The notes below the pieces were generated by a model. That model ran no database searches. It saw only the letters and a program-made list of their open reading frames with translations, and was not told where the DNA came from. From Eledone cirrhosa (lineage: Eukaryota), in contig OZ024745.1 of assembly GCA_964016885.1 (NCBI GenBank), positions 128,340,001 through 128,404,000 of the forward strand: a stretch of 64,000 nucleotides of DNA, given 5' to 3'. Positions 340-43,277 of this stretch are shown here, in pieces. Made by a program: the position numbers and the translations under genes. Each line of letters opens with the position of its first letter. The first letter of the stretch is position 1.

Positions 340-682
340 ATGCAGAGGTTATATTTAATTTGTTGGGATTCAACAAGCTTAAACATTTTTATAACTGATA
401 TAAAGCACTCAACAATTAGCTCCAACCGTTAAGGTTGTCTTTTTTCCGGGTATGTCAATATTTATTTATAAAACAAATCTGTATTTTATCTGATGAAAGC
501 GCACCATAACTTGATTTGGTTGCCCTTGAAATATATATAATAAAATAAATATGGTTTTATAAATATATTTTCCATTTATTAATATATTGTGTATTTACTC
601 CACTAACTTGTTGAGTGCTTTATATCAGTTATAAAAATGTTTAAGCTTGTTGAATCCCAACAAATTAAATATAACCTCTGCA
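340..682 (+). mobile_element. Family A hammerhead-bearing Penelope-like/retrozyme-type element in (TA)n, with 5' inverted copy of its 3' end
   Basis: Bases ~340-413 are the reverse complement of ~608-682. There is an internal hammerhead at 482-547 and TA runs on both sides. Homologous to 5970-6235, 25584-26027 and 31614-32066. Confidence 0.75.
482..547 (+). ncRNA. Type I hammerhead ribozyme (family A)
   Basis: TATTTTAT(482-489)-CTGATGA(490-496)-stem II aag..cacca/tggttg..ctt-GAAA(528-531)-tatata-TA-ATAAAATA(540-547). Stem I is a perfect 8-bp complement. Confidence 0.85.
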
Positions 683-744
683 TATATATATATATATATA
701 TATATATATATATATATATATATATATATATATATATATATATA

Positions 745-957
745 TAATAAGGAGTTGACGGACCCAGCATATTTAACAATGCCAGGACCGGTTGTATTTC
801 AGCGGACTCAATAGATAATGTACAACACATTCCAGAGTATACACATATTTATTCGCTTCAATACAACACACGTAAACGGGTGCCTATATTAGTTCACGGA
901 CTCGAGTTTCGGCCACACTTAATGCAGTAGCAGGGTGCACTGTACCCACTGTCTGCA
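745..957 (-). mobile_element. Family B element, 5'-truncated inside hammerhead stem II
   Basis: Reverse complement aligns with 4604-4815. It keeps GAAA-ctcgag-TC but not CTGATGA, and is flanked by (TA)n. Confidence 0.7.
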
Positions 958-1149
958 TATATATATATATACCCTATTTCTTTAGAATACGAAATTCTAA
1001 TACATATCTGTATATAGCGATGCATGAAGCTAAATCCTAATTCTATTCTGTTATAAGTTGTGCCAACTTTATGTAGCTTCGTATACAAATGAGATTAATC
1101 ACCTCATTTACAGAGACGAGAAAACCATATATTCTCGCCTGTTTTCAAG

Positions 1150-1326
1150 TCCAGCAGTCGCAAGAGTGGGAGAGATCGTCCTAAAACAATTGTAATATGT
1201 CCAATAAATTCCTTTCGTTGCAATACTGATTCTCTTTTTTCTGTGATATCATACTCTGCTCTACGAGGGCATCGAGTGCTCATACGGCCTACCGCATACG
1301 GACGCTTTAAGCATCCAACACCAATT
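1150..1326 (+). mobile_element. Family G element 3' portion
   Basis: 1185-1250 matches the reverse complement of 6663-6728 (caattgTAatatgtccaataaattcctttcgt...). TCGAGTGCT at 1272-1280; ends in (TA)n. Confidence 0.55.
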
Positions 1327-1410
1327 ATATATATATATATATATATATATACCATTTCCTGTCAGCATGACTTGGCAAGCTAATTAGAATACTGGATTAA
1401 CCTCTTTACT

Positions 1411-1448
1411 TCCCTCCGAAGAAGAGATATTATCTCGAAAATTAAGGA
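1411..1448 (+). ncRNA. Minimal hammerhead-like motif with CCGAAGA core variant
   Basis: cct-CCGAAGA-a-gagat/atctc hairpin-GAAA-at-TA-agg. Confidence 0.4.
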
Positions 1449-1641
1449 TATTCAAATAAATTTAAGGTAAAAGACTAATTGTCAATAATATATTTTGCAT
1501 TTGTATGTATATTCTATATCCATACCTACATTGTTTTGGCCTTCCAACTCCAAACGTTAATATATATATATATATATATATATATATATATATATATATA
1601 TATATATATATATATATATATATATATATATATATATATAT

Positions 1642-2130
1642 ATATCAACTAGAAATTGATTGACATATATATATATTTAAAATAAACACATGAAACAATC
1701 ACAGGGGATAATTTGTAAAGTGTGTAATCACACATAGCTAGGTATGTAACTAATTAAAGTTTAACTACAGCTTCAAATATTACCTTTTAAAAAGTGATTA
1801 ATCTTCTTTGTATATATTGCAACACGTGCGATGGGTCACTCGCAGATTTGCATTTGATGTGTAAACACAGATAGTTAAATCTACTCCCTTGCTGAAGATT
1901 CGTTTGGCTGCTGTGACTATACGGATTAATGGTGAAATATATTTCTTTAACGAAATATATACAAGGAAGATTAATCACTTTTTAAAAGGTAATATTTGAA
2001 GCTGTAGTTAAACTTTAATTAGTTACCTACCTAGCTATGTGTGATTACACACTTTACAAATTATCCCCTGTGATTGTTTCATGTGTTTAATTTAAATATA
2101 TATATATGTCAATCAATTTCTGGTTGATAT
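1642..2130 (+). mobile_element. Fold-back element with ~175-bp inverted arms and an internal hammerhead-like motif
   Basis: 1642-1816 is a near-perfect reverse complement of 1956-2130. It abuts (TA)n on the left. Confidence 0.75.
1887..1966 (+). ncRNA. Hammerhead-like motif with imperfect stem II
   Basis: CCTTG-CTGAAGA(1892-1898)-...-GAAA(1952-1955)-tata-TA-CAAGG. Confidence 0.55.
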
Positions 2131-39928: not shown

Positions 39929-39999
39929 CAAATCACACGGTGCCAATTAAAAATGGACATATTAAATATGTCCATTTTTAACTGGCACGGTGTGATTTG
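39929..39999. repeat. Short palindrome at the truncation point of the hAT fragment
   Basis: caaatcacac.gtgcca.ttaaaaatggacatatt / aatatgtccattttta.ctggcac.gtgtgatttg. Confidence 0.8.
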
Positions 40000-41379
40000 A
40001 ATGAGATTTTCCTGGTATTTTTAGCGAATCAGGCAACCACATATAGGCTCCTGAGATATATATTGCTGTACTGGTGGTGTTATTATTGTTAAACACTAAA
40101 CCGGACCTAATAGATCAAACCTATGATCAAAAGTGTGCGAACCATGATCTGTCCTTCATTTATTCAAATAGTTTCAACAATTATAGTATCCAGACCTACA
40201 TTTTCAAATGTGTCGTTTTTTTAAGACAGTAAAGTGGAATTTGAAAAGCATTCGCTGCTCTTTCAATCATGTCGGCAGGAAAGTTAAGGTGTTGCTTTGA
40301 ACAATATCATTCAACATTTGCCTCCAGGAGGTTTTTATGGGGCGATATAAATTCTGAGTAGAAATTTATAAGAAAACAATTAGTAGTTCAGTATCGCGGT
40401 TTAGTATTTTCTTTAGTATGATGGTTTACCAAACTACAATTTGCTGATTCTTTCAGTTCAAGTTAGACTTTAGTTCGGTAATTTTCACTGTGGTAGACAA
40501 AAATAAACAAACTAAAATAATAAGGTTCCTCACGGGAGTATGAGGGATAAACATATTAGAATGATGGTAACAGGGAAATTGTGACATTCATGATTTTTTC
40601 AACGAACATTCTGTAGCTTCTACATGAAGCCTACCATGTCCTACGATCGCCTGTGAACACATGCGATAATCTAACACCGCCTACGCTGTGCCGGATTTCA
40701 TATAGCGCAAAGCGGGCAACTTCCCTGGACGCCCTGCAACGAGAGGTCCCACCAGTGAAGACCGTAACAATTTATTTGTGCCCTCTGCTAGACTTTTTAG
40801 TTTTAGGATGGCTAGATTTTTTTAATTTAATACCTGTATGTATAACTTTTCAATTCCAATTACTTACGCCAAGCTAACTTTGATATGTAAAATTGGTGGT
40901 GGTGTGTGTGGGGGGGGGGTGTATATTCTAATTTTTAGTGTATAAGCCACCCCGTCAAATCTCAAACTACTCTGGGGTCCCCCCAAGGTTTAAATCGGGT
41001 CCGGAACACATGCGATAATCTAAGACCACCTACGAGCTCCAAAGAATTCCAATGCCCAAATATCACTACACGAAAACGTCATATTTGATTCGATGACATA
41101 CTGAAAATGTCATCACCATTTATGATGAGAAGGTTAGTATGAAATATCAGTTCATTGTTCTTTAACATCCGGGAATTCATTGTACACACGTATGACGTCA
41201 AATCAACAAAATATGTCAGATGAGTCACACCTAGTGACTGTGGACAATAAAAAAAAAAAAGTCAGTAGCAGTATTAGCAGTTCTAGTATTTATACTATAT
41301 CTGTTTCAACAAACTTTTATATATATCTATAGAAGATAAGAGAGGATGTACTGATTGACGTATGCACAAATATTGTCAA

Positions 41380-41905
41380 TAATTGTTTCTACTTTTGGCA
41401 CAACGCCAGCAAATTACCCCCAGTGCATTACTTGTACTTTATTTTATCGACCCCGTAAGGATGAAAGGCAAGGTTAACCTCGGTGGGATTTAAACTCAAA
41501 TCGTAAAGGGGCGTAACTCTATGCTGCAAAGCCCCTCTTAATTGTAAATACACTTCGTCGAGAAGAAGAAGAAGAAGAAGAAGAAGAAGAAGAAGAAGAA
41601 GAAGAAGAAGAAGAAGAAGAAGAAGAAGAAGAAGAAGAAAATAGCTCATTGCATTATATTAATTAGATATAAAACAAGGGCGGTGAATTGGCAGAATCGC
41701 TATAGCGTCGGACCAAATGCAAAATGCATGCTTCGTGGCATAGAATTATGGCCCTTTACGTTCTGATTTCAAATCCCGCCGAGGTTAGCTTTGCCTTTCA
41801 CTCTTACGGAGTCTATACATAAATTACCAGTAATGCACTGGGTCGATTTAATCGACTTGCCCCTCCCCCCAAAAAATTGTTAACCTTGTGCCTAAATCAG
41901 AAATT
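41380..41905. mobile_element. Two divergently oriented SINE family 1 copies separated by (GAA)n
   Basis: Minus copy ~41380-41532, (GAA)n 41560-41638, plus copy ~41678-41905. Confidence 0.8.
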
Positions 41906-42069
41906 ATTAATTAAATATAATACAGTGTGTTGAAAAATCTTGGTTAACTTAGATTATCCAAACGTTTATTATAAAAACACCCTCTAGCGGTGTTTAAAAT
42001 CTAACTCAATTAATTACTCATTCAGCCAAGAGCCTTGTTTCAGGGGGGTACCAGGGGACAATTCCACAC

Positions 42070-42253
42070 ACACGTGCGTTCCGCCACATATTTACACATT
42101 CAGCCTCCGCTCGTGAATCGTGGTTGTCTCCCTTTCCCGCTTAGTGACGCTATGATACTTCCTCAGTCAAAAGACTGCTGGAATTTCAAATTTGGCGGTC
42201 ATTCGATGCGTGAAGGAGCAGCTTAGCAGACACGATTTTTAACTGCGGTAAGA
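42070..42253 (+). promoter_or_regulatory. Possible promoter / first-exon region
   Basis: CpG-containing unique island with CACGTG(42071), TTTCCCGC(42133), TGACG(42145), TTCAAA-TTTGGCGG(42185-42198) and a donor-like G|GTAAGA(42248). Confidence 0.3.
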
Positions 42254-42674
42254 ATTTTTTCTTATATCAAAGTTTAATGGGCTTCCACTGAAGATTTATA
42301 AGTACCCACCTAAATATATTCTTACATGAATATATGTTAGGCTTCTACATAAACTGGAAACATTCTCCCAATTTGTAGAAAACTTATAATGAAACAATTG
42401 TTTGGAAAGAGAGATATATTTTAACTTTAATTATATCTCATAAAATAATACAACTGGCTTTCCACAAAATACATATAGTTAGCACCCCAAACACTTAAAT
42501 TGGGTTTATACTAACATATAACCTAATGTTTGTTGAGTGAGATGGTTACCAGTCGGAGTTTAGCTTTAAGCTATCTCTGTTATTGTATTAAATAAATATA
42601 TATATATATGCTGAAAAATAAATATATATATATATATATATATTTATTGGTGTGTAACGTTTAGTAATCAAGGA

Positions 42675-42770
42675 AACTGTCGGTTCCAGAGTCGGGTCAG
42701 ATCGATACCGATCGTACCAATGAGCTAGCTAATCGATCGCGAAACGCGCGTCACACGGGAATAAATATAA
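42675..42770 (+). mobile_element. Family G fragment
   Basis: ttccagagtcgggtcagatcgatac...gc-GAAA-cgcgcg-TC...aataaa; homologous to 48955-49048 (-). Confidence 0.55.
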
Positions 42771-42883
42771 TGATGCTATATTGATACCTCATCCCTGCTC
42801 CTTATTTATTATTATTCTTATATACATATAGATATAAACACATATATATATATATATATATATATATATATATATATATATAT

Positions 42884-43277
42884 AACGGAGGAAGTATGGT
42901 AAGCAACCGGATGGACCATAACGCAACACAGTACTCAATGCTAAAAGGGTAGTAGAGTAGGTAATAGGAAAATGTTTAACCCCAACGGCAGAGCTCAAAC
43001 CGTTTCGACGGAAATAGCCGTCGAAACGGCTTGAGCTCTGCCGTCGAGGTTAAACATTTTCCCATATATATATAGGAACGAGTAGGACCCCGACGGCTGA
43101 GCTCAAGCCGTTTCGACGGCTAATTCAGGACTAAGATTTTAGTCCAGAATTAGCCGTCGAAACGGCTTGATCTCAGCCGTCGGGGTCCTACTCGTTCCTA
43201 TTACCCATTCTACTACCCTAAGTATTGAGTACTTTGGTGCGTTATGGTCCACCTTGTTCCTTACCACATTTCCTTCT
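42884..43277. mobile_element. Two back-to-back family C hairpin elements
   Basis: 42884-43063 (-) and 43074-43277 (+), separated by a short TA run. Confidence 0.8.

Follow-up and report, generated by a model that had tools for sequence, protein, structure and literature searches.

We analysed a 64-kb stretch of the 3.0-Gb genome of Eledone cirrhosa (contig OZ024745.1, positions 128,340,001 to 128,404,000, forward strand; hereafter the window), in which an earlier note had described a short box, (T/C)GAGTRC, in several families of hammerhead ribozyme-bearing repeats that end at (TA)n. All nine boxes cited there were confirmed, each in position and strand. We found that the box forms only half of the feature, namely the 3' arm of a stem-loop with a bulge. 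The whole pattern reads N-CTC-[stem]-T(N)-GAG-N'-(R)C, with N and N' forming a pair. The inner stem-loop varies in size, with an insert of 6-75 nucleotides (nt) between the arms, and the bulge has 2 nt, starting with T (1 nt in family F). The leading T or C given for the box is not fixed, as family I has TA-GAG. Families A, C, D, F, G and I are the 3' ends of autonomous Penelope-like elements (PLEs) of the Hydra clade. In the usual full-length layout of these elements, two copies of the stem-loop stand between the hammerhead and the ATG of the open reading frame (ORF), and we refer to them, in that order, as copy 1 and copy 2. Junctions with (TA)n are fixed at two places in each family, a short end and a long end, and fold-back insertions, in which one arm is inverted, usually show one of each.

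The window contains the following copies of the stem-loop, mostly copy 1. A family A insertion between (TA)n runs at 342-681 (+) comprises an inverted copy of the tail (342-419), a hammerhead core at 490, a copy-1 stem-loop at 597-618 (+), whose 3' arm is the cited box, and the long end at 681. The same family has a copy-1 stem-loop at 6033-6055 (-) and two fold-back insertions, at 25589-26026 (+; short end 25589 in the inverted arm, stem-loop 25944-25965, long end 26026) and at 31619-32065 (+; short end 31619, stem-loop 31983-32004, long end 32065). Family B is represented by a copy-1 stem-loop at 804-838 (-), which has a variant 3' end, and by an insertion at 4365-4816 (+), the 3' part of a non-coding tandem unit of ~845 nt, with its hammerhead core at 4562 and copy 1 at 4725-4760 (+). 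Copy 1 of family C lies at 6321-6346 (-), 18956-18981 (-; short end of the fold-back arm 19099), 19806-19831 (-), 19968-19993 (+; inverted arm cut just past the box) and 43207-43232 (+; one change in the 5' arm), and a tail of this family with its box is found at 42931-42960 (-). Family D has copy 1 at 7083-7103 (+), where it is not part of the lowest-energy fold, and at 47792-47812 (-; short end of the fold-back arm 47923). Copy 1 of family E is at 23666-23707 (-), with a hammerhead core at 23820 (-) and an inverted-arm short end near 24111. In family F, which occurs both after and before Hydra-type ORFs, copy 1 with its 1-nt bulge is at 2444-2465 (-), and the short end of the fold-back arm is at 2659. 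The family G copy at 1253-1279 (+) is 5'-truncated and its ribozyme core is gone; elsewhere, the sequence of this family continues into copy 2 and then a Hydra-type ORF. A family H tail with a box is located at 4874-4925 (-), its stem imperfect in this copy, and family I has copy 1 at 48037-48063 (-), with a TA bulge that put it outside the earlier box pattern. Two further families carry stem-loops, one at 6588-6610 (+; G.U outer pair, TA bulge, outside the box pattern, hammerhead core 6497) and one at 52491-52518 (+; G-C outer pair).

The box had been described as always accompanying a ribozyme on the same strand. Its coordinates stand, but in several of the cited copies (families C, D and G) truncation at the 5' end or folding back has left no 5' ribozyme core. 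The family C fold-backs turn inside or just before ribozyme helix II (18987-19099, 19837-19962, 43072-43201 and 48769-48884), and therefore most genomic copies of this family are without the 5' catalytic core. This suggests that the turn site is a preferred stall or snap-back point of the reverse transcriptase (RT). We also noted box-less fold-back insertions in (TA)n that show two short ends, at 1677-2095 (hammerhead core 1892) and 17818-18316. A miniature inverted-repeat transposable element (a DNA transposon) was rejected as an identity for the fold-back insertions, whose inverted arms are unequal and whose 5' ends are variable, with one arm usually lacking the tail.

As a word, the box is not enriched over the window as a whole (25 occurrences of the 7-mer, against 20.0 +/- 4.6 expected; 16 of 100 shuffles reach 25). 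Its position is what is enriched, as had been claimed. In the window, 18 of the 25 boxes sit 33-63 nt ahead of a (TA)4+ run on the same strand. We examined 790 kb of held-out genome, in 79 stretches of 10 kb, and found 72 of 262 boxes 33-66 nt before (TA)n, against a background of 4.3% of positions; in the reverse orientation, 22 of 260 were near (TA)n. The real word ranked best among 60 permutations of its letters (median 3.9% near (TA)n), and the 59 stretches far from the window gave 48 of 188 boxes at this distance. Family C contributes 51 of the 114 near-TA boxes, and the counting unit is therefore the family and not the copy.

Searching with the box stripped of its leading pyrimidine gave 13 multi-copy clusters, a set to which the window and the loci retrieved with family B also contributed. 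An RCTC word lies upstream in 10 of these and in 55 of 197 clusters far from repeats, and RCTC together with an inner stem is present in 8 of 13 versus 13 of 197. The first inner pair changes in compensated fashion, being T-A in families B, C, D, G and H, C-G in families A, E, I and one more, and G-C in family F. In single-sequence folding, 8 of 10 window copies form the lower helix, one of these without the bulge. No known Rfam family or small ribozyme was recognized at the gathering score: the best 150 of 249 matches to the window included only microsatellite-driven microRNA matches, with no hammerhead, and the family I leader gave nothing near threshold. A twister-like reading was rejected by eye, as the inner loops are too short for the twister consensus.

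The junctions with (TA)n fall next to these stem-loops. The short end lies mostly 5-8 nt upstream of copy 1, and the long end mostly 5-8 nt upstream of copy 2. We mapped 318 3' ends at (TA)n in 203 sequences totalling 1.53 Mb; 122 of them fall no more than 14 nt upstream of copy 1, with modes from -5 to -8 (A 27/46, B 0/34, C 33/92, D 12/29, E 3/10, F 5/8, G 5/18, I 17/37 and J 20/44). The short-end peaks are narrow, with 31 of 33 at -8 in family C, 16 of 17 at -5 in family I and 14 of 27 at -5 in family A. Most of the remaining ends form one long-end peak per family. In the leaders of families I and J, a second copy with a G-C outer pair stands ~6 nt past the long end, which predicted a second copy at the same place elsewhere. 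We found it in families A (at one locus, L185, in a read-through followed by a Hydra-type ORF), C and G (6 nt past the long end, then a Hydra-type ORF) and F (8 nt past the long end, with an insert of ~75 nt, then a Hydra-type ORF). The search pattern required a CTC word 2-14 nt past the end, and was therefore blind to read-throughs without CTC; what it returned was, for each family, a single common continuation in which the 3' arm is complete and an ORF is present. Contigs from public DNA runs, one of which may be the source of the assembly itself, end at 1333 and 1416 of a family I locus (L201), beside both copies.

These positions account for the 45-65 nt that had been given as the distance from box to junction. 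The distance is family-specific, ranging over 38-63 nt, and we rejected a ruler running from the box to the junction. The 45-65 nt are the remaining length of the tail, because the short junction is mostly 5-8 nt upstream of copy 1 and the long junction mostly at the same distance upstream of copy 2. What spacing is constant runs instead from the junction to the next stem.

Autonomous elements themselves carry the box. Walking upstream of one box-bearing copy led to a full-length family I element with the order pseudo-long terminal repeat (pLTR) with hammerhead, stem-loop, ORF, second pLTR, and read-through into Hydra-type ORFs was found for families A, C, D, F and G. The ORF of family I (P0002) is a single frame of 798 amino acids encoding an RT and a C-terminal endonuclease; a Pfam search with it gave no match. 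Family I is a young autonomous family, with 104 scored copies at 96-100% identity and many open frames of ~820 codons. Among 30 of its loci, the full stem pattern precedes the ORF in 15 and its 3' part alone in two, the rest being truncated. Families I, A and C have RLRW and SDKT (DKT, not DKG), in line with the RWK type, and a CNC-x5-C linker is present in P0002 and L024; a CCHH motif was not seen by eye. The RW, DKT and CxCx5C features are those by which the Hydra clade is defined. The predicted hammerhead in the pLTR matches the core boxes and helices by pattern, with a variant core in family C, and all of these families insert into (TA)n. The tandem unit of family C, ~3.5 kb, is somewhat above the <3 kb of the clade definition; full-length arrays of it, with a period of ~3.53-3.54 kb, lie at G000:C1:91476605-91487271 and 437200339-437210965.

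We built a quick tree of 32 RTs. Five of these, from other PLE ORFs of this genome, are separated with support of 99 from a group of 27, within which the seven that come from this genome (families C, D, F and I plus three more; A and G were not included) form a single branch with support of 98. The tree holds no named Hydra reference, and likeness to Hydra-1_Obim was judged by eye. Because the seven RTs form one branch, the families appear to be diverged paralogues of a single PLE clade. The carriers are thus not the unrelated ribozyme families of the earlier note; they do align as one diverged family at the protein level, and their DNA flanks do not. What the window holds of most families is the truncated end of an autonomous element and not a retrozyme. 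Family B, the non-coding unit of ~845 nt with a type I hammerhead and a partial tandem in L147, has no PLE ORF match upstream, and is consistent with a PLE-derived non-LTR (non-long terminal repeat) retrozyme. For comparison, a search for GIY-YIG endonucleases gave 150 scored matches among 10,596 candidates, from which we fetched 50 loci, mostly Neptune- or Poseidon-like by reading. The stem-loop was present in none of 17 non-Hydra PLE 3' regions, several of which have ends without a tail, nor in the one leader examined.

The same motif occurs in Hydra-like elements beyond this genome. Metagenome contigs scanned with a nine-protein alignment gave 532 confirmed loci, of which 77 were kept (median RT identity 50%; 48 clusters at 70%) and 53 had a testable leader. 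With a strict paired descriptor, a copy was found in 31 of the 53 leaders (200 shuffles: mean 2.7, maximum 8), at a density of 3.2 per kb in leaders versus 0.27 in ORFs. Sequence-only anchors detected one copy in 17 leaders, two in 24 and three in 1, or at least one in 42 and at least two in 25. The copies are spaced 52-83 nt apart, the first mostly 70-112 nt past the hammerhead core and the last mostly 21-55 nt before the ORF start. Across 81 distinct instances, the inner pairs are Watson-Crick in 71, 51 and 51, with shuffle maxima of 53, 40 and 33. Using one leader per 70% RT cluster, the copy-1 pairs are Watson-Crick in 18, 18, 15 and 13 of 20, which was matched by 3-11 of 5000 shuffles that take no account of relatedness below the 70% cut. 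The outer pair is G-C or T-A in the metagenome leaders and A-T in this genome. TA dinucleotides are more frequent in the 10 nt ahead of the stem (0.175) than in the spacer (0.094). Of 16 pLTR alignments ending inside contigs, 9 continue into a TA-type repeat and, by eye, each of these stops 0-11 nt short of a 5' arm; of the other 7, one stops 3 nt before the 5' arm without a TA-type repeat and six stop elsewhere. Among the six Hydra consensus sequences published by Craig et al. (PMC8557442), inspected by eye, the stem-loop is clear in Hydra-2_Amil and Hydra-2_Ajap, occurs twice in Hydra-1_Ajap and has a near match in Hydra-1_Crog; the Hydra-1_Amil consensus stops ahead of the tail. The carriers of the same pattern in that set are coral and sea-cucumber elements.

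Together, these results support that the motif is real and, judging by its conservation, functional. An insertion end does not include the copy that adjoins its junction, and that copy must therefore act on template RNA or on donor DNA. The variable loops and the covarying pairs suggest a single strand that is folded. In an in vitro study of Poseidon PAc, cDNA starts at two internal RNA sites flanking the tail, and the enzyme extends both target strands and requires RNA to +172, beyond the start sites (Frangieh et al. 2024, PMC11167929). These internal starts and the evidence for a folded strand therefore favour an RNA docking site, and we consider it probable that the stem-loop sets where the RT-endonuclease starts cDNA, ~5-8 nt upstream. 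The stem-loop would fold within the transcript, and the protein would bind the invariant CTC/GAG helix plus the bulge; the nicked (TA)n target would then pair loosely with UA-rich bases just 5' of the stem and be extended from there. Priming at copy 2 would leave the tail, and copy 1 within it, in the insertion, and priming at copy 1 would leave the tail out. If two starts occurred at a single break, the result would be a fold-back insertion that has a long end and a short end. Family B and other non-coding units would use the same signal to be mobilised in trans. The proposal of the earlier note, a cis signal for the mobilising RT/endonuclease, fits all of these findings, with the amendment that the signal is a structured, usually duplicated stem-loop and not a linear box. 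More tentatively, tandem identical RNA docking hairpins might position two primings at one break, and thereby cause both the PLE tail and the fold-backs, and might serve as a portable signal of ~25 nt that lets any carrier RNA enter (TA)n from an internal start; we would put this broader idea somewhat short of an even chance.

Several observations weigh against a docking stem-loop of this kind. Folding z-scores of single sequences are unremarkable (-1.5 to +0.5), as for a weak stem, and the lower helix is missing from the lowest-energy fold in 2 of the 10 window copies. In family B, copy 1 is clean, yet 0 of 34 mapped ends are short ends, in a sample where most mapped copies were selected by a full-length query, and its copy 2 is imperfect (lower helix as T-A, weak inner stem). 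Family D has only a degenerate 3' half at the copy-2 site, yet long ends and an ORF are present, and no read-through of family E to an ORF was found (one uninformative match). Among the metagenome leaders, 11 of 53 lack a copy by sequence-only anchors, several of them interrupted or mis-set by eye, and the inner pairs of copy 2 covary weakly (8 of 20 for the second inner pair, not above shuffles; n=20). By eye, the stem-loop was not seen in the Hydra-1_Obim consensus of Craig et al. (PMC8557442). The strand signal is slight, with 15 G.U against 8 A.C at the inner pairs and pairing probabilities alike in sense and antisense.

The slight strand signal gives RNA no clear preference, which leaves room for an account we regard as unlikely, in which the GIY-YIG endonuclease reads the stem-loop on extruded or single-stranded donor DNA and nicks TA-rich bases upstream, so that the ends are cut sites. 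Homing enzymes of the GIY-YIG type typically cut at a fixed distance from their binding site. The Penelope endonuclease is reported to have required the tail in plasmid DNA for recognition (PMC11167929), and Craig et al. attribute the tail to endonuclease resolution (PMC8557442). However, an insert of 6-75 nt, covarying inner pairs and a one-sided bulge fit a folded single strand and not a duplex, and PAc ends in vitro map to RT starts on RNA (PMC11167929). The stem-loop could also be an RNA-processing signal, with the transcript cut or terminated just upstream and the RT starting at the new 3' end. The stem-loop does always lie downstream of the junction, as expected of a cleavage signal, and PAc RNA-seq read ends coincide with start sites (PMC11167929). 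We nevertheless regard processing as quite unlikely: PAc initiates internally on uncut RNA (PMC11167929), the motif is too small and variable for any known ribozyme and has no Rfam match near threshold (best 150 of 249 for the window, and the family I leader), and cutting at copy 2, in the 5' leader, would sever upstream sequence that a full copy needs.

The position of the last copy, mostly 21-55 nt ahead of the ORF start, would suit a translational operator or packaging signal for the element's own protein, with the ends adjoining it through that protein or through the flanking TA-rich bases. As the main role this seems improbable, since the stem-loop is retained in non-coding family B and the junction peaks are base-precise at both copies; such a function is compatible with RNA docking and does not exclude it. 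Least probable, and in our view very much so, is that the motif is a neutral relic of common descent or a product of chance. All ORF-linked carriers on the tree do fall in one clade, and the box is not enriched overall in the window. However, compensatory changes have been kept across RTs of ~50% median identity whose loops and flanks cannot be aligned, and the pattern spans several phyla.

RT-binding stem-loops are known elsewhere, in the 3' stem-loops of long and short interspersed elements (LINEs and SINEs), the R2 3' untranslated region, hepadnavirus epsilon and the stems flanking the telomerase template. The motif resembles these as a small bulged hairpin that would recruit the RT and fix its start, and differs in lying 3' of an internal start, being left out of its own copy and being duplicated; it has no sequence or Rfam match. 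It appears to be a cis-element not described before, in a clade that is already established, and other retroelements have elements of this kind; we did not find it described in the literature searched, a set that excludes subscription papers, Repbase notes and bioRxiv supplements. The carriers agree with the Hydra clade as described by Craig et al. 2021 (PMC8557442) in having a C-terminal endonuclease, the RW and DKT motifs, the CxCx5C linker, a hammerhead close to the 3' end, (TA)n as target, partial tandems and 5' copies that are inverted. Unlike there, a tail stem-loop is part of the picture, which the accessible text does not mention, and many paralogous young families coexist in this genome, some with variant hammerhead cores (PMC8557442). 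Like PAc, they have two fixed 3' ends, one on either side of an optional tail that follows the hammerhead where pLTR and ORF meet; the tail is ~60-95 nt and lies in the 5' leader here, versus 30-40 nt and in the ORF for PAc (PMC11167929). In that study, an AC-rich stem-loop is named at the start site and a binding motif is only hypothesised in the first 172 nt of the ORF, whereas here a duplicated covarying motif predicts both ends (PMC11167929). Family B resembles non-LTR retrozymes in its non-coding tandem unit and type I hammerhead, and the accessible texts on these describe no shared cis-motif (PMC7229834; bioRxiv 10.64898/2026.07.22.740005).

The motif bears on how PLEs choose their template and on why the tail is optional; the sole in vitro study found two internal start sites and not the signal that sets them (PMC11167929). 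Docking at the stem-loop, if true, would account for the optional tail that has long been noted in these elements. The motif is short, covaries, recurs across the clade and predicts both ends within a few bases; it is amenable to direct mutagenesis, and a young family with many open ORFs is at hand for it. The motif can also serve as a marker for locating Hydra-type ends and their non-coding passengers. PLEs are relatives of telomerase RT, and the motif offers an RT-RNA recognition element comparable with telomerase RNA.

Other elements lie in the window and its genome. Neptune-like PLE tails have no such stem-loop; ~9 nt past their short end stands another common word (ACTCGTGT) with a small hairpin, found at ~1680-1750 and ~6660-6730 of L070 (-), in L087 and at 18839-18890 of the window, with the CTC 5' arm in common. 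Possibly, this word and hairpin are the equivalent signal of that clade. A Neptune-like family whose hammerhead core is a variant (TTGANAA type) has its 3' end at 186-326, and an autonomous element of this family, with a 938-codon frame and two pLTRs, is present in L070. A box-less TA-targeting PLE family with a hammerhead has ends at 2694-3170 (-), 19994-20026 and 47654-47717, and is also present at 4900-7600 of L102, the locus that holds its RT-endonuclease ORF. Retrozyme-like tandem hammerhead repeats of ~490 nt lie at 7818-10000 of L080 (+), with the same family at 60394-60959 of the window. An abundant SINE-like repeat of ~200 nt, which we take to be octopod-type, occurs at 12876-13158 and in more than ten other places, and at 27555-28388 a 64-nt unit is repeated 13 times in tandem, with 95% identity.

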